Source of the DNA: Bdellovibrionales bacterium | Lineage (GTDB): Bacteria > Bdellovibrionota > Bdellovibrionia > Bdellovibrionales > JAKFYE01 | NCBI GenBank assembly: GCA_965116215.1 | Contig: OZ220494.1 | Coordinates: forward strand, 384,841 to 448,840 | Length of the DNA stretch: 64,000 nt | Direction of reading: 5' to 3' | Shown here: positions 27,585 to 60,716 of the stretch, one piece after another | How the letters are laid out: every line of letters begins with the position of its first letter | Position numbering within the stretch: the stretch's first letter is position 1 | Notes under the pieces: generated by a model | What the model saw: only the letters and a program-made list of their open reading frames with translations | Database searches by the model: none | What the model was told of the DNA's origin: nothing | Made by a program: the position numbers and the translations under genes

Positions 27585-28015
27585 GTCCAATAGAATTTTT
27601 ATTGATACTGGGTAATAAACAGATTTGTACTTTTATTCAATCGTCTACAAATAGTTGATGATTTCTCTAAATGACTTCTCAGAAATTTGGGAACAGATGA
27701 AAATTTGTACTTTCCAATGAGTGTAAACCCTATCAAAAAGCCCTTAAGTTCTCTTGAGTCTAAGTTTTTTAAAATAATGCTTGAAGTGGCTACCTTACAA
27801 AAAGGGATTATTTTAGTGAACTGAGTTGATTTCTTATGCAGGATATAATATTTCCTATTCTTTTGAAATCATCTCTAAGTTTTGGAAGACTATTGTAAAT
27901 CTTCAGTAAATCTTTGACTGGATAGGACCAGCGATGTTTAATCTTGTGAGGATCATCCAAGGCTATTTTAAAAATCCAAATATGGGTGATGTTTATAATC
28001 AATGAGGAGGTCTAT

Positions 28016-28690
28016 ATGAAATTGGAAATAAGGTCATTTAAAAAGCCTATGGTGTTAGCTAATACTGTCTTACTTTTCGTTGTTTGCTTCTGGTCTTCCT
28101 TGTCTTATGGGGCTAATGAAAAGTCAGAAGATTTTAAACAGACTGAAGCAGCGGCAAGGGAGGGGCATCCAGAGGCACAACATAGACTTGGTATGATGTA
28201 TGTTGCAGGAGAAGATGTTAAAATAGATTTTAAAAAGGCTTTTCAATGGTTTGAAGCAGCTGCAAAGCAAGGTTATGCAACGGCTCAGCATGGTCTTGGT
28301 ATTATGTATTATAGCGGTGAGGGGGTTGAAAGAGATTTTCAAAAGGCCATTTCATGGGTGAGAGCAGCAGCAAAACAGGGGGATAGGAATGCACAGCATG
28401 ATCTTGCTGTCATTTATAGTAAAGGAGAAGCTGTTCCAAGAGATCCTAAAAAAGCGGCCAAGTGGCTTAAAGCAGCAGTAATGAAAGGTCATGCGAGTGC
28501 CGAATATTTACTGGGTTTGGCTTATTTTGCAGGAGAAGGGGTTGAAAGAGATTTTAACAAAGGTTTGGCATGGGTTGAATCAGCAGCAAGACAAGGGCAT
28601 GTAGAGGCCATCGCTCTTCTTGAGGAGATCCATATGGAACGGTCAGAAAGAGCATTGATAGGAGAATACGACTACGATGAGTGTTATTAA
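28016..28690 (+). CDS. secreted Sel1-like repeat (SLR) protein, paralogue 1
   Basis: GAGGAGG lies 6 nt before the ATG at 28016. Signal peptide ...LLFVVCFWSSLSYG/ANEKSE. Five or six A.Q..LG.MY..GEGV..D..KA..W...AA.QG repeats. Ends ...DYDECY. Confidence 0.88.
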   Translation: MKLEIRSFKKPMVLANTVLLFVVCFWSSLSYGANEKSEDFKQTEAAAREGHPEAQHRLGMMYVAGEDVKIDFKKAFQWFEAAAKQGYATAQHGLGIMYYSGEGVERDFQKAISWVRAAAKQGDRNAQHDLAVIYSKGEAVPRDPKKAAKWLKAAVMKGHASAEYLLGLAYFAGEGVERDFNKGLAWVESAARQGHVEAIALLEEIHMERSERALIGEYDYDECY

Positions 28691-35552: not shown

Positions 35553-37115
35553 TTGGTGTATTCTTTTAAAAAGCCTCTATACTCTATCTGTATTTTGTTT
35601 ATTTTTGGATGTTCGGCAGATATTGAGGTTGATCCATTTATACCTGAGTTGAAAGGACATAAAGGATTCTTTTGTACACGGCCCCCAGAGGTTGTTCAGC
35701 ACTTTATCAAATTTCTTTTTATCATTGATAAGTCGGGAAGTAATGACAAGAGTGATCCCGAGGCTTTTCGAAGAGCTTCAAATATAGAGTCTTTTTATAA
35801 TCAACATCAACATAATCAATTTATGGAATGGGGCTTAATTGTTTTTAATGGGCGACGAGCTCGGGCTCTTATAGGTAGGGATGAGAATACTCCGACTTTT
35901 TCTCGTAATCCATATCAGATTAGATCAGGTATTGATGAAATTCGTCATAGACGTGATTCTGGAGAGACACCCTATGGCTCGGCTCTCAGTTTGGCTGAAG
36001 ATGCCATACGTAATGATATGATTAAAGGCTCAGAACAGCGTAGTACTTATATGGTTTTTTTCGTTTCAGATGGTCTTCCAACAGATATTAATAATGTATC
36101 GGCACTGGAGAGGCGTGTTCGTAGTTTAAAACAAATATCTTCAAATAAAATTTATCTCAGTTCTGCCTATTATGGTCAAAAAGATGTCAATGCGGAAATG
36201 CGTTTGAGAAGAATGGCAGAAGTCGGAGGGGGTGAATATATTAACTTAGCCGCCCATCAGAACCTCAATTATAATGATCTTATTGTTGATGGGCAAAATC
36301 ATGAGAGATGGTTTTTGAAGAATTTTGTTGTTTATAATTTAAACGCTACAATCTGTGAGAATACAAGAATAGGTGTCGACTCTGATGGGGATGGGCTCTG
36401 TGATCAAGATGAAATAAGATATGGATTAAATCCACGTCGACGTTTTAGTAGAGAAGGTGGCTTTTCAGATTGGTTTATACGTCGAGAACAATTCGGAGAA
36501 AGGTTACCAAGATGTTTTAGTCGGAAAGATCAAGATCTTGATCTTCTTACTGAGTGCGAAGAGTCTTATATAGAGAATAGGAGTGGAGTGAGTCGAAATC
36601 CTAATGAAAAAAATCCTATTCATGGAGACCCTGTAAACCCTGATACAGATTTAGATGGTTTTATTGATGGTATTGAGCTTTATACTTTTAGAAATAAAGG
36701 GGCTCCTATGAATGGATTTGATGTAACACGTAGTCATGATGGGGAAAAGGATGAGGCAGGTGTTCAAATTAAACAACATAGGAATCCACTAGTCTTAGAC
36801 TTAGATCAAATATCATATGGCGTGCGTATTGATCATGTTTATGAAAATAGGTACACAGGCCAAAATTGTTATAAATTTCAACAAAATACCTTACCTCTAC
36901 TTCCGACTTTAGCTACGGATTATACAGGAAATTTTCCGAGCCATATTCATCGTAAAAATGAAAATTTAATCTATGTTCATTTTATACAAACTCCTGAGTC
37001 AAATCCATTAGGTCGTGGCCTTTTTTCTTATTCTTTACAGAAGTTAAGGTTAGGGTCTTCTCGAGGCCTAAGAATAAATGATTCTGTTTTCCGTCATTAT
37101 GTTGTTCCCAAATAG
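35553..37115 (+). CDS. vWA-domain lipoprotein with thrombospondin-type-3-like Ca-binding repeats
   Basis: AGGAGGGGGGG lies before the TTG/GTG start. Lipobox LFIFG-C-SA. MIDAS-like FIIDKSGSN ... FFVSDGLPT. Acidic loops DSDGDGLCDQDE and NPDTDLDGFIDGIE. Confidence 0.7.
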   Translation: MVYSFKKPLYSICILFIFGCSADIEVDPFIPELKGHKGFFCTRPPEVVQHFIKFLFIIDKSGSNDKSDPEAFRRASNIESFYNQHQHNQFMEWGLIVFNGRRARALIGRDENTPTFSRNPYQIRSGIDEIRHRRDSGETPYGSALSLAEDAIRNDMIKGSEQRSTYMVFFVSDGLPTDINNVSALERRVRSLKQISSNKIYLSSAYYGQKDVNAEMRLRRMAEVGGGEYINLAAHQNLNYNDLIVDGQNHERWFLKNFVVYNLNATICENTRIGVDSDGDGLCDQDEIRYGLNPRRRFSREGGFSDWFIRREQFGERLPRCFSRKDQDLDLLTECEESYIENRSGVSRNPNEKNPIHGDPVNPDTDLDGFIDGIELYTFRNKGAPMNGFDVTRSHDGEKDEAGVQIKQHRNPLVLDLDQISYGVRIDHVYENRYTGQNCYKFQQNTLPLLPTLATDYTGNFPSHIHRKNENLIYVHFIQTPESNPLGRGLFSYSLQKLRLGSSRGLRINDSVFRHYVVPK

Positions 37116-39344: not shown

Positions 39345-41183
39345 CTATTGTATTATGCCGAATGGAAAGCCTACGCTTGCAGATGTGGATTTTTTGTTTT
39401 TTGCTATAGGAAATTTCATTTGACGTATGACAGATGCTGCACATGAATAAAGAGAATCTCCATTTATCATCTCAGATTTAGAAATGCGAACCATCTCAAC
39501 TCGACCATTAGGCTGAATATTCCATTCAAATTCTACTCGTCCAGAAAGTTCTGGAGTTGTAAAAAGCGCACGTTCATAGCAACGAGCAATCTGATGAATA
39601 TGTTTTTTGACCTCAGCCATAACTTGCTCTTTAGTGAGTCCTTCATTTTTATTGATTGTGATGACTTGAGGCTTCCCTATAACAGATCCTTCAATATTTC
39701 GAGAGCCGGATATCCCTCTTAAGCCTTGAATCTCATAGTTTTTTTCAGTTCCATAACTTAATCCTTTCGTTTTTATAGAACCAATATCTTCAAGATTTAC
39801 AGAGCTTGTTTCTAAAGTGTTTAATAGCTTAGCTGTTTTTACTGATTTTATTTTTCTAGTACTTTTATTAATATTGATCGATAGAGATTGATTATTTTTC
39901 AAAGATGGATTTGGAAGAATTGCAGCTACAAGCTTTTTAACATTCACTGGTTTTTTCTTAGCAATTTTTACAGGATATTTATTTATTTTTTTAAGACGTT
40001 TTGATTTTTTAAGAACAATCTTTTTGGGTTTACTTTGTTTTTTAATAATATTTTTCTTTTTAACTTGGGCTATGATTTTTTGAGTTTGTTTTTTCTTCTT
40101 AGGTTTTGGTGGGTTAACTAGTAGACGTGCATAACGCTCAGGAACATTTTTAATTTTGGGAACATTAATCTTAGGTTTAGAAAAATAGGCAAAAAAGAGT
40201 AAGAGACAGTGAATGAAACCGGAATAGAGTGTTGTTTTTCTTATTTCTTCATCGGGAACGATAAGTTTTTTTTCTGCTAGTTTCCTTGGTGTAGGAACAT
40301 ATCTAAAGTGAACTGATGATGTTTCATCAAAGGCTATGCTAACTAAATCAGATCTATTCATAGTTAGCAAATATCCATCATCCCAGGATTTTAAAATTTT
40401 TGATTTAAGTAGATCTGGAAGCGTGGTAGTTATTTTCTCTCTTTTTACAGTCACTTGAAATCCATTTGGAATAAAACATTCTGTTGTTTCACCTCTGTAT
40501 AGAGCTAAATCCAAATTTTTCTTTATGAAAGGAAGTTGTAATCCCGCTCGTGCCCCTGAGCCCACGCTGATTTTTTCATTGGGTTCAAAGTGTTGAATAT
40601 CATACATTTCTCCATGCCATGTAACAATTCCTTCTAGAACACTTTGACTAACATTGATTTTATCAACATATTTATGAGGAACAGCTAACTTTAAATTTTG
40701 ATTTAAAATTTTTATTTTATTCCCTTTATAAGGATATGTGCATGTTTTTTTCTCTTGGTTTTTAGAAGAAAAAGACTTATTTAAATTGAGTGTTGGATTT
40801 TCTATGATAATTGTTTTTTCTTCATATAGGTCATCTTCATTTTCTGATTTTATATTTTCTATTTCCTCTGGAAGAGTATAGAAAACACATTTGAAGGGGC
40901 CAATGGATATTGGAACATCATTTACAGCAGGGGCTGTTTTTACTTTTTTCCCATAAAAATAAATATTTTTATTTAAACCAGATATTAATGGTTGAGAATT
41001 TTTCTCTATGATGACAGCATGTTGTTGAGATATAGTTTTGTGAAAAGGTAATATAATTTCAGATTTTGGATTTTGGCCAATAACAATAGGGTATTCTGTA
41101 AATTCACGATCAAAAATTAATTTTTCTTTGTCATAGATTTGAACATGTAGGGGAGTTTTAAATTTTTTTTTATTTTTATACAT
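39345..41183 (-). CDS. FHA-like / single-TM / Lys-rich linker / AgmX-PglI-type C-terminal domain protein (TonB-like transducer)
   Basis: N-terminal FHA-like pattern IVIGQNPKSEIILPFHKTISQQHAVII. TM segment LYSGFIHCLLLFFAYF. Lys-rich linker PPKPKKKKQTQK...KKKPVNVKK. The C-terminus IARCYERALFTTPELSGRVEFEWNIQPNGRV...SCAASVIRQMKFP...VGFPFG matches the two-Cys AgmX/PglI C-terminal domain as I recall it. Confidence 0.65.
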   Translation of the reverse strand: MYKNKKKFKTPLHVQIYDKEKLIFDREFTEYPIVIGQNPKSEIILPFHKTISQQHAVIIEKNSQPLISGLNKNIYFYGKKVKTAPAVNDVPISIGPFKCVFYTLPEEIENIKSENEDDLYEEKTIIIENPTLNLNKSFSSKNQEKKTCTYPYKGNKIKILNQNLKLAVPHKYVDKINVSQSVLEGIVTWHGEMYDIQHFEPNEKISVGSGARAGLQLPFIKKNLDLALYRGETTECFIPNGFQVTVKREKITTTLPDLLKSKILKSWDDGYLLTMNRSDLVSIAFDETSSVHFRYVPTPRKLAEKKLIVPDEEIRKTTLYSGFIHCLLLFFAYFSKPKINVPKIKNVPERYARLLVNPPKPKKKKQTQKIIAQVKKKNIIKKQSKPKKIVLKKSKRLKKINKYPVKIAKKKPVNVKKLVAAILPNPSLKNNQSLSININKSTRKIKSVKTAKLLNTLETSSVNLEDIGSIKTKGLSYGTEKNYEIQGLRGISGSRNIEGSVIGKPQVITINKNEGLTKEQVMAEVKKHIHQIARCYERALFTTPELSGRVEFEWNIQPNGRVEMVRISKSEMINGDSLYSCAASVIRQMKFPIAKNKKSTSASVGFPFGIIQ

Positions 41184-41324: not shown

Positions 41325-42248
41325 TTAGTTGGTGAAATAAAATGTATAGAGTACAAATAGGATAAATCCAAATAAGAGACAAGCTCCATAAACTCTTTTG
41401 ATTTCCTTGGAAAACATGATTATAGGTAGTAACAAAAGTGTTGTGGCTATTAGAATGTAGATACTTTCATTTAAGTGACCATTCAAAGATGCAAAAGGGT
41501 AAAATAGGGCTGTTCCACCTAAGACCATAAGTATATTTTGAATATTTGAGCCAAGTATATTACCTATTAATATATCTGAGTCTTTTTTTATAGTAGAGAT
41601 AATGGTTGTCGTGATCTCTGGGATATTTGTAGAAAATCCTACTAAAGTGAGCCCAATGACTGCTTCTGATAGTTTTAAAGATTTCATTAGGCTGATAATA
41701 CCCTTTAAAAAGAGTTGACCGCCAAAGTAAAGAAGAATTATTCCTAAAATGAGAAAGCTCATATTTTTAAAGATCTGATAATGAATTAAAGATTCAGTCT
41801 TCTTATTTTCTTCTTGATGAGGCAAAGAATAAATAAAGAAAATAAATAAAGAAAGTAAACAAAAACCTTCAATGCGTGAGTATTGAGAGTCATATCCCAT
41901 AAAAAATAATAGACAGATAGCTAAGAAAGCCCAGAGCCAATTTTTTAAAATTAAATTTTTCTTAAACTTTAATGGACGAATAACAGCTCCCAATCCTAAG
42001 ATTAAGAGTATATTGATAATGTTGGATCCTACGATCATTCCTAGTGCAACATCATTTTTATCTTTTGAAACTGAAATTAAACTTGTTACTAATTCTGGAA
42101 GAGATGTGCCAATAGCAACGATTGTTAATCCTATATTTAAATCTGATAAACCTAATTTTTTACCTAAGATTTTAGCTTCTCTAATGAGAGTATTTGCTCC
42201 ATAAATAAGTGTTGCGAGGCCTATAGCAAAAGTTAAAAATTCGTTCAT
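41325..42248 (-). CDS. Ca2+/cation antiporter (CaCA / YrbG-like)
   Basis: Two alpha-repeat motifs (GTSLPELVTSL..., STNIPEITTTI... with GNILGSNIQNIL and GSNIINILLILG). About 10 TM segments. 307 aa. Confidence 0.8.
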   Translation of the reverse strand: MNEFLTFAIGLATLIYGANTLIREAKILGKKLGLSDLNIGLTIVAIGTSLPELVTSLISVSKDKNDVALGMIVGSNIINILLILGLGAVIRPLKFKKNLILKNWLWAFLAICLLFFMGYDSQYSRIEGFCLLSLFIFFIYSLPHQEENKKTESLIHYQIFKNMSFLILGIILLYFGGQLFLKGIISLMKSLKLSEAVIGLTLVGFSTNIPEITTTIISTIKKDSDILIGNILGSNIQNILMVLGGTALFYPFASLNGHLNESIYILIATTLLLLPIIMFSKEIKRVYGACLLFGFILFVLYTFYFTN

Positions 42249-57267: not shown

Positions 57268-57330
57268 CTCTTTTAAATGATTAACAATCAAATAAAATGA
57301 AAGCCTGATGACACTTTTTAATAACACCGC
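57268..57330. repeat. Sel1-gene 3' element, copy A
   Basis: ctcttttaaatgattaacaatcaaataaaatgaaagcctgatgacactttttaataacaccgc covers the last 4 codons (..RCY*) plus ~50 nt downstream of the 57318-58343 gene. Confidence 0.85.
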
Positions 57331-58343
57331 TTATTCTCTTCATGTTTCCTCTCCCAGTACAGGGCTTTTTGAAGATCTTTAAAAACACCAAACCTATACA
57401 TTTCACTAAGAATATCTTGAGCCCTCTTATGCCCCTGCTCTGCTAGGGCTTCATACAACTCCAAAGCTTTTTGAGGATCTTTTTTAACCCCCTTGCCTTG
57501 TTGATACATTAAAGCCAAATGATATTGAGCATGTATATGCCCCTGTTTTGCTGCAGCTTCAAACCACTTAAAAGATTTAATATTTTCATTATTATAATAT
57601 CTCGAGCCAAGGTCATACTGAGCCTTGCTATTTCCCTCCCTTGCCGCTGTTTCAATCTGTTTATCAAAGCTTAGTTGCTCCTGAGCTGCCTTATACCCTT
57701 GGTCTGCTGCTTTTTGAAACCAATAATGAGCCTTTCGAAGATCTCTTTCAACTCCCAGTCCCATATCATACAGTTGAGCAACTCTATATTGAGCTCTACT
57801 ATGCCCCTGCTGTGCTGCCTTCTCATACCATTTAACAGCCCTTTGATGATCTCGACCGACAAGGTTTTTTCCTAAATGATATATATCAGCAAGCTTAAAT
57901 TGAGCATTTACATCACCTCGTTCTGCTCGGGTTTCAATCATATTAACGCTTTGTTGAAGTACAGATTGAGCTGGCTTATACCCTTGGTCTGCTGCTTTTT
58001 GAAACCAATAATGAGCCTTTTGAAGATCTCTTTCAACTCCCAGTCCCAGACTATACAGTTCAGCAACTCTATACTGAGCATCTATATGCCCCTGCTGTGC
58101 TGCCTTCTCATACCATTTAACAGCCCTTTGATGATCTTGACCGACAAGGTTTTTTCCTAAATGATATATATCAGCAAGCTTAAATTGAGCATTTACATCA
58201 CCTTGTTTTGCTTGAGCTTCAAGTTGCTTCAAATTTTCTGAGTTTTCATTAGCCCCATAAGATAAAGGAGCAGAAAAACAAATAGCAAAAAGTAAGGCCA
58301 TCTTGGTTAAAGCTAAAGACTTTAGAAATGGTTTTGGTTTCAT
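57318..58343 (-). CDS. secreted Sel1-like repeat protein, paralogue 2 (contains 285-bp tandem duplication)
   Basis: AAAGGAGCC RBS. Signal peptide ...ALLFAICFSAPLSYG/ANENSE. About 8 Sel1 units. Ends ...ENKRCY. Confidence 0.9.
   Translation of the reverse strand: MKPKPFLKSLALTKMALLFAICFSAPLSYGANENSENLKQLEAQAKQGDVNAQFKLADIYHLGKNLVGQDHQRAVKWYEKAAQQGHIDAQYRVAELYSLGLGVERDLQKAHYWFQKAADQGYKPAQSVLQQSVNMIETRAERGDVNAQFKLADIYHLGKNLVGRDHQRAVKWYEKAAQQGHSRAQYRVAQLYDMGLGVERDLRKAHYWFQKAADQGYKAAQEQLSFDKQIETAAREGNSKAQYDLGSRYYNNENIKSFKWFEAAAKQGHIHAQYHLALMYQQGKGVKKDPQKALELYEALAEQGHKRAQDILSEMYRFGVFKDLQKALYWERKHEENKRCY
57630..58205. repeat. ~285-bp tandem duplication (2 copies) within the Sel1 gene
   Basis: For example, cctaaatgatatatatcagcaagcttaaattgagcatttacatcacc occurs at 57871 and at 58156 (offset 285). 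The protein units GDVNAQFKLADIYHLGKNLVG.DHQRAVKWYEKAAQQGH... are repeated with a few substitutions. Boundaries are approximate. Confidence 0.85.
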
Positions 58344-58560
58344 GTTAAAGGCTCCTTTGTGTATGTGGGCATTATGCCGCTCATATTCTGATTTTTAAAA
58401 TAGCTAATGTTGTTATCTTAAAACAAGGCGAATTTTGTTCTCCTATTCATGTACGTAAGGAGCAAATGCTATGCCAGCTGAATAGATTCATCTTTTATGT
58501 TAATATCTTTTAAAAAAAAGAGTGTTGAACTTCCACTTAAAAGAGGCTAAGTTATTGTTA

Positions 58561-58673
58561 CAACTCAACTCAACTCAACTCAACTCAACTCAACTCAACT
58601 CAACTCAACTCAACTCAACTCAACTCAACTCAACTCAACTCAACTCAACTCAACTCAACTCAACTCAACTCAA
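58561..58673. repeat. perfect pentanucleotide microsatellite (CAACT)22 plus partial CAA
   Basis: Counted directly: 22 uninterrupted CAACT units (58561-58670) followed by CAA, in the spacer between divergent Sel1 genes. Confidence 0.97.
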
Positions 58674-58869
58674 AAACTGAGAAAAAATTATACATTCTAT
58701 AAACTTTATTACATTTTTTTATAATTTAAAATAGTTCCTTTGCATCTAAGTTTCAGTTTTATAAGGGTATATATATTTGTGGTGGTTCATAGCTGTTAAA
58801 TTGACTTTTAGAGGAGTTAACTTTACTAGTTATGGATCATTTGCATATATAGGCAAAGGAGCCTTTAAC

Positions 58870-59649
58870 ATGAAACTAAAACCATTTCTAAAGCCTATAG
58901 TCTTCGCCCATATGGCCTTACTTTTTGCTGTTTGTTTTTCTGCTCCTTTATCTTATGGGGCCAATGAAAAGCCAGAAAGTTTTAAGCAGCTTGAAGTCCG
59001 AGCAAAGCAGGGAGATGTAGATGCTCAATATGAGCTTGGTAGCATGTATCATAAAGGGGAAAGGGTCTTAAAAGATTTTCAAAAGGCTTTGAAATGGTTT
59101 AAAAAGGCAGCAAGCGGGGGGCATCCAGCAGCTCAAAATGAGCTTGGTATGATATATGCTAATGGAGAAGGACTTATTACTAAAAGATATCATCCTCTGA
59201 TAATTAAAAGATATCATCTACAGGCTCAGTATTGGTTTAAAAAGGCAGCAAAGCAGGGGAATATAAATGCTCAACATAACCTTGGTTATATGTACACTGA
59301 AGGATATACTTCTGACGCAGGTTGGGTTATCCGCCGAGATTATCGTATTAAAAGAAATCTTCGAAAGGCTTTTTATTGGTATGAGAAGGCAGCAAGCGGG
59401 GGGCATCCACTGGCTCAATATAAACTTGGTCTACTGTATTATTACGGAATGGAGGGGAAGAAACTATTGCTGTTAGAAGATTTTTCACTAGCTTTTTATT
59501 GGTTTAAAAAGGCAGCAAAGCAGGGGCATAGAGGAGCTCAATATGAGGTATCTGGAATGTACGATAAAGGGGAGGGGGTTGAAAAAGATCCTCAGAAAGC
59601 CCTGCACTGGCGGAGGAAAGCGGAACAGAGTAAGGAACGGTGTTATTAA
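58870..59649 (+). CDS. secreted Sel1-like repeat protein, paralogue 3
   Basis: The ATG at 58870 has the same RBS context as paralogue 2 (CAAAGGAGCCTTTAACATGAAAC). Signal peptide ...ALLFAVCFSAPLSYG/ANEKPE. Ends ...SKERCY. The track ORF has 31 extra upstream codons. Confidence 0.88.
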   Translation: MKLKPFLKPIVFAHMALLFAVCFSAPLSYGANEKPESFKQLEVRAKQGDVDAQYELGSMYHKGERVLKDFQKALKWFKKAASGGHPAAQNELGMIYANGEGLITKRYHPLIIKRYHLQAQYWFKKAAKQGNINAQHNLGYMYTEGYTSDAGWVIRRDYRIKRNLRKAFYWYEKAASGGHPLAQYKLGLLYYYGMEGKKLLLLEDFSLAFYWFKKAAKQGHRGAQYEVSGMYDKGEGVEKDPQKALHWRRKAEQSKERCY

Positions 59650-59695
59650 AAAGTGTCATCAGGGCTTTCATTTTATTTGATTGTTAATCATTAAA
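59638..59695. repeat. Sel1-gene 3' element, copy B (inverted relative to copy A)
   Basis: The reverse complement matches copy A almost base for base, with one extra G (...aatgaaagccctgatgacactttttaataacacc). Confidence 0.85.
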
Positions 59696-59936
59696 AAAAA
59701 AGTGGTTCTACTCTTTTAAGATCTGAAGAATAAATTTTGTAAATATTAACTATATATACCTTTTTCTGTCTGCACTGCGTTTATGGTTCTAAAAAAGCAT
59801 TTTCATTGTCTATGAATCTTTCTGAAATGACATATATTTGGAAAAATATCATAGGATTTTCAAACAGTATTTTAAAATTCTTGTTCTTTAACTATACGTA
59901 GCTATACAATAAGGCTCTTAAAGGACAAATCGAAGT

Positions 59937-60716
59937 ATGAAAAAGAAACTCAGTAAGACAGAGATTCGTGGACCAGATCCTTTGGTTAGAGGGATTCGTA
60001 GGCTACAGCAACGGTTATTGCCTTATATAAAGCCTCTGCTTATCTTTTCCGGAGTTCTTATGTTTTCTGGGGGCGGATATTCTCTTTATAAGGGGCATTT
60101 AAGTCGTGTTGAATTAAAGGCTCAGGAAGCCTATTTTCTAAATAAAAAATCCTTAAAAAATCAAAGGGAATCTTTAAACTCAAAAAAAGTTGGAGATAAA
60201 AAAAAGGGCGATGATAAAATTACATCTTCATCTAGTAAGCCAGAAAAAAGAGATATTTTAGAGGATTATGGAAAGCAGATTACTGAATTTCATCGTATCA
60301 TTTCAGGTTATCCGAGAACAACAGCTCGTATTCTTTCTGGCTTTACGCTTTCAGATCTTTATGTGGAATACGAACAAAGAGAAAAAGCTCTGGAAATTCT
60401 AGAAAGTATGGGTTCGTTCATCGATAAAGATTCTGTTCTTTACGGATTATTAAATTTACGATTAGCACATTTAAAGTCTGAAGTGGGAAAATGTATTGAA
60501 GCTATCCCCACTCTTCAAAAAATCAATACCAATAAAAAATTGTCTTTTTTATTTGCAGAATCTTTATTGAGGCAAGCTATTTGTTATGAATCTCTTGGTC
60601 AACTCAATGAAGCTGAACGTATTTATAAAGATTTAGATGGTAATTATCCCAATACAGATCAAGGTCGTTCTGCAAAAATATATGCAAGACTTTTAAAACA
60701 AAAAGATTTTTTATAG
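59937..60716 (+). CDS. YfgM-like membrane-anchored TPR-like protein
   Basis: N-terminal TM segment (LLIFSGVLMFSGGGY) followed by a helical TPR-like domain. Its position immediately upstream of bamB matches the E. coli yfgM-bamB arrangement. Confidence 0.55.
   Translation: MKKKLSKTEIRGPDPLVRGIRRLQQRLLPYIKPLLIFSGVLMFSGGGYSLYKGHLSRVELKAQEAYFLNKKSLKNQRESLNSKKVGDKKKGDDKITSSSSKPEKRDILEDYGKQITEFHRIISGYPRTTARILSGFTLSDLYVEYEQREKALEILESMGSFIDKDSVLYGLLNLRLAHLKSEVGKCIEAIPTLQKINTNKKLSFLFAESLLRQAICYESLGQLNEAERIYKDLDGNYPNTDQGRSAKIYARLLKQKDFL

Follow-up and report, generated by a model that had tools for sequence, protein, structure and literature searches.

A long perfect CAACT repeat between two divergent secreted Sel1 genes of a Bdellovibrionota bacterium: a candidate contingency locus

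We analyzed a 64-kb stretch of DNA (hereafter the window, 64,000 nucleotides in all) from a Bdellovibrionales genome of 1.82 Mb. G+C content in the window is ~34%, with a GC skew that is steadily positive, and its housekeeping genes include dnaE, guaA, guaB, miaB, and pyk. At the locus described here, a pentanucleotide microsatellite lies in the 526-bp intergenic region between two divergent genes for Sel1-repeat proteins, which we call genes A and B. A third member of the same secreted family is encoded elsewhere in the window.

57318-58343, minus strand: gene A, Sel1-repeat protein of 341 aa, start ATG 58343 (ORF, Pfam, N-terminus)
58561-58673, plus strand: (CAACT)22 + CAA, perfect pentanucleotide microsatellite (sequence, Tandem Repeats Finder, probe scan)
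58870-59649, plus strand: gene B, Sel1-repeat protein of 259 aa from ATG 58870 (ORF, Pfam, paralogue alignment)
28016-28690, plus strand: third secreted Sel1 family member in the window, without a microsatellite upstream

The edges of the tract read ...ttgtta(CAACT)22CAAaaactgag..., and Tandem Repeats Finder reported a period of 5, 22.6 copies, 100% matches, and 0% indels over 113 bp. The 22 uninterrupted CAACT units plus CAA that a first-pass annotation had recorded at 58561-58673 were thus confirmed. The same annotation held that the 64 kb contain no other microsatellite of this kind, and this was also borne out. Tandem Repeats Finder detected no comparable second array with a unit of ≤6 nt across the 64-kb window, the runners-up being AATA x8.5 with 73% identity (41828-41863) and TGAGGA x2.8. 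When we scanned with a 15-nt (CAACT)3 probe, allowing ≤1 mismatch, all 20 overlapping matches fell within the tract (0.02 expected from 100 dinucleotide shuffles). The start codons at 58343 (minus) and 58870 (plus), described as each ~0.2 kb from the tract, are indeed 217 and 196 nt away. The two strands of the tract are asymmetric: the plus strand is G-free and has no stop codon in any of the three frames, each of which encodes (QLNST)n, and the minus strand (AGTTG) contains TGA in all frames. Long, pure, and built of a unit within the 1-9 nt range, the tract has the makeup of SSR contingency loci, and its placement is also theirs, in the 5′ region of a surface, secreted, or modification gene.

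Both flanking genes matched Pfam PF08238 (gene A, E = 2.8e-66; gene B, E = 7.8e-43), and both products begin with a signal-peptide-like N-terminus, which in gene A reads MKPKPFLKSLALTKMALLFAICFSAPLSYGA|NE. Their earlier description as two divergent secreted Sel1 genes therefore stands. The solved structures nearest to the gene B product are bacterial Sel1 proteins and human SEL1L. In public records, gene B is called as P0001, a protein of 290 aa that starts at TTG 58777. Since both the paralogue alignment and a Shine-Dalgarno (SD) sequence, AAGGAG 8 nt upstream, support ATG 58870, these data indicate that this codon, 31 codons downstream of the public TTG, is the true start. The 341-aa product of gene A is absent as such from the protein collection searched, and its public start therefore probably differs from ATG 58343 too.

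The secreted Sel1 family has at least seven members in the genome, consisting of the three in the window plus P0005, P0007, P0030, and P0077. The signature of the family is a near-invariant N-terminus, ...LLFAxCFSAPLSYGA|NE, usually accompanied by a C-terminal Cys-Tyr; P0030 carries a trypsin-like protease domain. The family is lineage-specific, and its nearest homologues outside the genome are about 35-44% identical. Multigene families of secreted proteins are the usual setting of contingency loci.

The 5′ ends of genes A and B form two inverted arms.

58151-58371, no strand assigned: left arm of the inverted duplication, at the 5′ end of gene A (28 nt of leader, signal peptide, and first Sel1 repeat)
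58842-59062, no strand assigned: right arm of the inverted duplication, comprising the same parts of gene B

The arms are 221 nt long, 82% complementary, and 470 nt apart, and the longest exact run between them, 31 nt, falls in the signal-peptide codons. Genes A and B are an old inverted duplication. The 470-bp core between the arms is unique, and the tract sits roughly in its middle, leaving 189 nt on the left and 168 nt on the right. The 3′ ends of the two genes are near-identical (57271-57329 versus 59638-59697), covering the last four codons (xRCY-stop) and ~48 nt downstream with one indel, while the rest of the genes is 70-80% identical. This pattern suggests gene conversion or a conserved 3′ element. 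Within gene A, we also observed a 285-bp tandem duplication (57682-58212; 1.9 copies, 95% identity). The repeated unit amounts to 95 codons and stays in frame, so the duplication is a recent expansion within the repeat protein.

Upstream of gene A lies a short block that recurs upstream of the third paralogue.

58382-58404, minus strand: 23-nt block GCTATTTTAAAAATCAGAATATG upstream of gene A, common to the third paralogue at 27962-27984 (plus strand)

The block GCTATTTTAAAAATCNNAATATG is found upstream of these two family members (2 matches versus 0.01 expected) and is absent 5′ of gene B. The block that gene A shares with the third paralogue might act as an operator or within the leader. Since it is missing from gene B, the two sides of the tract are not symmetric.

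To place the tract among others of its kind, we scanned species-representative genomes with (CAACT)5, which gave at least 119 loci of at least 5 units. Tracts of at least 20 units are rare, accounting for 3 of the 119 among the matches listed. Long CAACT tracts are enriched directly after a start codon and short ones are not: among the matches listed, an ATG ≤16 nt upstream on the CAACT strand was present for 16 of 35 tracts of at least 9 units, compared to 4 of 35 in the control (the opposite strand at the other flank), and for 8 of 67 tracts of 5-8 units, compared to 10 of 67 in the control. The following loci, from unrelated bacteria, have an SD and an ATG directly before (CAACT)n, with (QLNST)n encoded.

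L001, 2216-2335
L007, 6244-6318
L082, 7469-7562
L102, 2240-2338
L011, 2150-2198
L015, 3119-3167
L021, 6239-6283
L087, 3163-3222

We inspected six of these loci (L001, L007, L011, L015, L021, and L102), and in each a short SD-ATG-(CAACT)n leader precedes a gene on the same strand. In Limosilactobacillus, the genes that follow encode DNA methyltransferases (N6_Mtase; type III Mod), and the leader ORF stops at the start codon of the methyltransferase gene. In a spirochaete, the gene encodes a BspA-type LRR protein, and genes for signal-peptide proteins follow the leaders of L011, L015, and L021. At all six inspected loci, one frame takes ribosomes either through the start codon of the gene downstream or to a point no more than 35 nt from it. 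Relative to that codon, the nearest leader stops are at -18 (L011), -22 (L015), -3 (L001), -2 (L007), and +10 (L102), and in L015 and L021 a frame reads on into the downstream gene. The M-(A/V)-R-x-L leader before the tract is conserved in L011, L015, and L087, all from MAGs labelled Deltaproteobacteria, and differs in L021; in L087, the tract is followed by a run of N, and we identified no gene downstream.

Because the six inspected loci share this same-strand leader design, and because long tracts are enriched after ATG, we infer a cross-genome rule in which long CAACT tracts would be sense-strand, translated, frame-setting elements for the downstream gene. In the literature searched, we found no description of such (CAACT)n/(QLNST)n leader cassettes, which in several phyla lie ahead of genes for methyltransferases and secreted proteins. 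Start-codon-proximal CAACT leaders across phyla would provide a general rule that predicts both the strand and the gene controlled. A tblastn search of the three window Sel1 proteins against the 119 loci listed detected no Sel1 relatives near CAACT tracts elsewhere. Many of the tracts lie within a few bases of contig ends (for example, L017, L026, L034, L044, L046, L058, L080, L012, L028, L037, L053, and L116). Short-read assemblies therefore tend to break at these tracts, and unit numbers from draft genomes are lower bounds.

At the locus in the window, the plus strand also carries an SD-like sequence and a potential start codon just before the tract.

58541-58557, plus strand: SD-like AAGAGG (58541-58546), then 8 nt, then TTG (58555-58557) (sequence)
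58555-58680, plus strand: hypothetical leader mini-ORF M-L-(QLNST)n-QLKN-stop (sequence; translation predicted)

The TTG at 58555 sits 6 nt before the tract and opens a frame that runs through it. Where this frame would end depends on the number of units: at TGA 58678 with the 22 units present, at TAA 58700 with 23, and at TAA 58722 with 21 or 24. Relative to the gene B ATG, these stops are at -192, -170, and -148, and no frame reaches gene B. Thus, an SD-like sequence and a start codon are found 5′ of the tract as in the leader cassettes of other genomes (TTG here, ATG in the comparators), but the passage of a frame to the downstream start is lacking. We also considered a 52-aa ORF (58522-58680) as a protein gene and rejected it, as it has a GTG start without an SD and its product is almost pure repeat.

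We searched the region for promoters, operators, and RNA structures. A sigma-70-type consensus scan gave 11 sites compared to 9.5 expected, which is background. With a PWM, the best plus-strand match was TTGAAC-17-TAAGTT (58525-58553; score 7.7), and scores of at least 7 occur ~2.5 times per kb in the window. A search for exact words common to both unique flanks, which degenerate operators would escape, found none beyond chance; the longest was 10 nt, a length reached in 22% of shuffles. Paired operators flanking the tract are therefore not indicated. An Rfam scan gave no relevant family match. In a putative rightward transcript, the CAACU repeats are predicted to stay single-stranded in both MFE and centroid structures, with no hairpin like that of hmw, and the fold of the minus-strand transcript is no better than shuffles (z = 0.0). 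At 113 bp, the tract is far longer than the 16-19 bp spacer between -35 and -10 elements, so it does not belong with the core-promoter spacers of the hif, porA, and opc type. As a candidate proximal promoter for gene A, we examined TTTAAA-17-CATAAT together with the block common to the third paralogue. We dropped it because the third paralogue does not keep this spacing (21 nt to its TATAAT) and because the SD-masking helix predicted for gene A, described below, needs a leader of at least 150 nt.

Folding of the leaders predicted that the ribosome-binding sites of both genes pair with distal anti-SD sequences.

58734-58743, plus strand: anti-SD GUUCCUUUGC, predicted partner of the gene B ribosome-binding region (folding; beats shuffles, P ~0.03)
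58853-58862, plus strand: gene B ribosome-binding region GCAAAGGAGC, predicted to be masked (folding)
58458-58464, minus strand: anti-SD GCUCCUU in the gene A leader, -120 to -114, predicted partner of its AAGGAGC (P ~0.02 versus shuffles)

The predicted gene B helix, between 58734-58743 and 58853-58862, has 10 bp. Against dinucleotide shuffles, the P values for distal masking in the two genes are both modest, and masking in the third paralogue is not significant. Among 46 window genes, gene A ranks 1st and gene B 4th for distal masking. In constrained folding of gene B, masking was kept when the leader was held single-stranded up to 58733, and the pairing probability of the SD dropped from ~0.93-0.98 to ~0.2-0.3 only once the footprint reached at least 58734. 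Thus, the leaders of genes A and B seem to extend over at least 150 nt, with the ribosome-binding site predicted to be masked by a distal anti-SD, and transcription would therefore start within ~50-60 nt of the tract edges or beyond.

The explanation we favor, with a probability of roughly 0.45 and hence tentatively, is that the tract is a hypermutable contingency-type repeat that modulates gene expression in cis, most probably that of gene B, by way of a long leader or distal upstream region. Long pure repeats slip at high frequency, as is known from Haemophilus, Neisseria, and Moraxella. From this established knowledge, the tract would be expected to lengthen and shorten in 5-bp steps through slipped-strand mispairing, much more often than point mutations arise, and a population would consist of a mixture of tract lengths. 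Less securely, a change in length may alter the expression of a neighboring gene in cis. The likeliest target would be gene B, for which the tract is the sense, stop-free strand; we place the effect mainly on the plus-strand gene because the asymmetry between the strands of the tract and its counterparts in other genomes both point there. Within the long leader or distal upstream region of gene B, the tract might act as a graded or periodic modulator, as the repeats of hmw, uspA2, and nadA do, and not as a core-promoter spacer.

Several observations argue for this explanation. One is the rarity of tracts of this length, and another is the SD-like AAGAGG and TTG that adjoin the tract, together with the masked sites predicted in both genes. 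In addition, at the six inspected loci, long CAACT tracts elsewhere are found at typical phase-variable genes, on the sense strand of the downstream gene. Other observations argue against it. The six comparator leaders reach the downstream start, while here no frame ends nearer than 148 nt. The CAACU RNA is predicted to be unpaired, the promoter matches are at background, and the P values for masking are only ~0.02-0.03. Finally, the 64 kb contain a single such tract, and phase-variable organisms usually carry many.

In its function, the locus would appear to resemble distal or leader repeats (hmw1A/hmw2A, uspA2, and nadA) more closely than repeats within core promoters (hif) or ORFs (opa and mod). 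At hifA/hifBCDE of H. influenzae, reportedly described by van Ham et al. in 1993, a (TA)n repeat lies in overlapping divergent promoters, so that one repeat affects both units. As at hif, a single repeat here separates two divergent transcription units. However, the hif repeat is itself the -35/-10 spacer, of ~16-20 bp, which a 113-bp tract cannot be. In H. influenzae hmw1A/hmw2A, a long hairpin, cut by RNase III, arises when the (ATCTTTC)n repeats pair with a G-rich region (PMC12721329). There, a many-unit repeat separates the promoter from a gene for a secreted or surface protein and has a graded effect without a frameshift in the protein, and we propose the same here. The two differ in that no pairing is predicted for the CAACU tract, in contrast to the hmw hairpin, and in that the unit is 5 nt rather than 7 nt.

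The (TAAA)n repeat of N. meningitidis nadA, which encodes a surface adhesin, lies upstream of the core promoter, where the number of units shifts the spacing and phase of distal elements, and operators for NadR are present on both sides of the tract (PMC2791445). The likeness is a repeat in the distal upstream region of a gene for a surface or secreted protein. The tract studied here, however, is much longer, lies between divergent genes, and is flanked by no motif that we could detect as common to both sides. In Moraxella catarrhalis uspA2, an (AGAT)n repeat lies in the 5′ UTR, where it separates the promoter of a surface-protein gene from its start codon (summarized in PMC4679880). This repeat differs in being a tetranucleotide and in belonging to a cultured pathogen with measured effects on expression.

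Pentanucleotide tracts such as GCACA[21-32] occur inside type III mod genes (PMC5909438), and shorter ones occur in hsdM (PMC2651432). The mod tracts and the CAACT loci L001, L007, L011, L015, L021, L082, and L102 follow the same strand logic as the window tract and have similar lengths. The CAACT comparators share with the window an SD or SD-like sequence and a start codon just 5′ of the tract and a downstream gene on the same strand. They differ in that one of their frames reaches or overlaps the downstream start, while the frames in the window stop 148-192 nt short of it. Repeat-driven phase variation is thus already known, and what is new here is the lineage of the host and the gene family.

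The main competitor, which we regard as possible though somewhat doubtful, is a microsatellite that is neutral or a by-product, having arisen and grown through slippage within a long AT-rich spacer, in a genome of small size, and having no effect on genes A and B. Such a tract may well be polymorphic in length. Much of the local evidence is as a neutral tract would have it, as no frame that spans the tract reaches a gene, no promoter or operator signal is significant, Rfam gave no match, and no other such tract exists in the 64 kb. The same holds for the 19 of 35 long CAACT tracts elsewhere that, among the matches listed, have no ATG ≤16 nt upstream. However, pure tracts of at least 20 units, being so rare (3 of the 119 listed), would be expected to decay unless turnover is fast or the tract is maintained. 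Neutrality would also leave as coincidences the location of the tract, exactly in the common 5′ region of two genes of a secreted family, and the adjoining SD-like sequence and start codon, for which we estimate the chance at ~5-10%.

A more specific mechanism, which we consider unlikely, takes the leader mini-ORF from TTG 58555 as a frame-setting device. The number of units would set the stop at 58678, 58700, or 58722, and only the last would put the ribosome at the 5′ arm of the helix predicted to mask the gene B ribosome-binding site. The result would be a 1-in-3 stochastic ON switch that works by remote unmasking over 146 nt, not by a frameshift in the protein or by re-spacing of a promoter. 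In keeping with this model, the SD-like AAGAGG and TTG precede the tract, long tracts elsewhere have an ATG upstream well above the control (16 versus 4 of 35 among the matches listed), and in each of the six comparators one leader frame extends to the downstream start. A 10-bp anti-SD helix is also predicted, and its unmasking only once the footprint reaches at least 58734 is about the reach of a ribosome stopped at 58722. Yet that position is right at the edge of a normal ribosome footprint, the start codon is TTG and not ATG, and a promoter upstream of 58541 would have to be postulated. The model also stacks several assumptions on a purely thermodynamic prediction, and its design is unlike that of all six comparators. 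If true, it would describe the first repeat-driven switch in Bdellovibrionota and an offshoot of the (CAACT)n/(QLNST)n leader cassettes.

The first-pass annotation had proposed a different mechanism, in which each 5-bp step rotates the left flank by ~171 degrees relative to the right and thereby toggles or reciprocally biases the divergent promoters. The geometry is right, a unit of 5 bp being about half of a 10.5-bp turn, the genes diverge with the tract roughly central, and nadA provides a precedent for a distal repeat between operators (PMC2791445). Nevertheless, we consider this half-turn toggle quite improbable. It would require that a protein bridge, or a loop, span more than 113 bp, and the flanks have no common motif beyond chance. 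Promoters adjacent to the tract see the same local sequence at any number of units, so that only a long-range loop could sense the phase. The conserved block upstream of gene A is missing at gene B, which makes the sides asymmetric, and both the strand asymmetry and the cross-genome pattern favor one-sided use of the sense strand. With a 113-bp tract that is not a spacer, a longest flank word of 10 nt (22% of shuffles), and promoter matches at background, a toggle that biases both genes is not supported. The more general part of the proposal, that the locus is a candidate contingency switch, holds up on the purity and uniqueness of the tract and on the multigene secreted family, while the half-turn mechanism has no feature in its favor.

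Recombination between the inverted 5′ ends, as at fimS or Campylobacter fetus sap, could flip the 470-bp core and swap promoters with the microsatellite as a bystander, and the 221-nt arms with their 31-nt exact run in the signal-peptide codons would suit this, but it is very improbable, as the arms are just 82% identical and hence not being homogenized, and neither adjacent ORF contains a recombinase domain (Pfam matched nothing in the 562-aa ORF and only TPR in the one at 59937).

If the tract varies and alters Sel1 expression, as in the cis-modulation explanation that we favor, it would represent the first contingency locus of the simple-repeat kind in Bdellovibrionota. Our search of the literature for work joining Bdellovibrio with repeat-driven phase variation returned nothing beyond a review of phage-bacteria coevolution. 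By the reasoning applied to Haemophilus and Neisseria, such a locus would also imply that this Sel1-rich member of the group, with its 1.82-Mb genome, faces a fluctuating selective partner, be it a host, prey, or immune-like pressure.

We also examined how the source relates to other sequenced bacteria. The best matches of GuaA, at ~62-64% identity, were to MAGs named Bdellovibrionales, Bdellovibrionaceae, or Pseudobdellovibrionaceae, and all nine proteins tested formed singleton clusters at 90% identity among ~15 billion proteins. Exact-protein look-ups for both Sel1 products, P0001, BamB, and P0007 found none on record, and metagenome scans with the left flank plus tract and with a degenerate pattern of the family signal peptide each gave 0 matches. 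Because of the GuaA identities and the nine singletons, we take the source to be a deep-branching, small-genome member of the Bdellovibrionota without a close relative in the collections searched. Two further window ORFs have weak, sub-threshold similarity to myxobacterial gliding-motility proteins. One (35553-37115, plus strand) resembles MtsD/CglD, and the other (39345-41183, minus strand) resembles GltG/GltJ and has an AgmX/PglI C-terminal domain. These gliding-motility-like ORFs are consistent with an origin in Bdellovibrionota.
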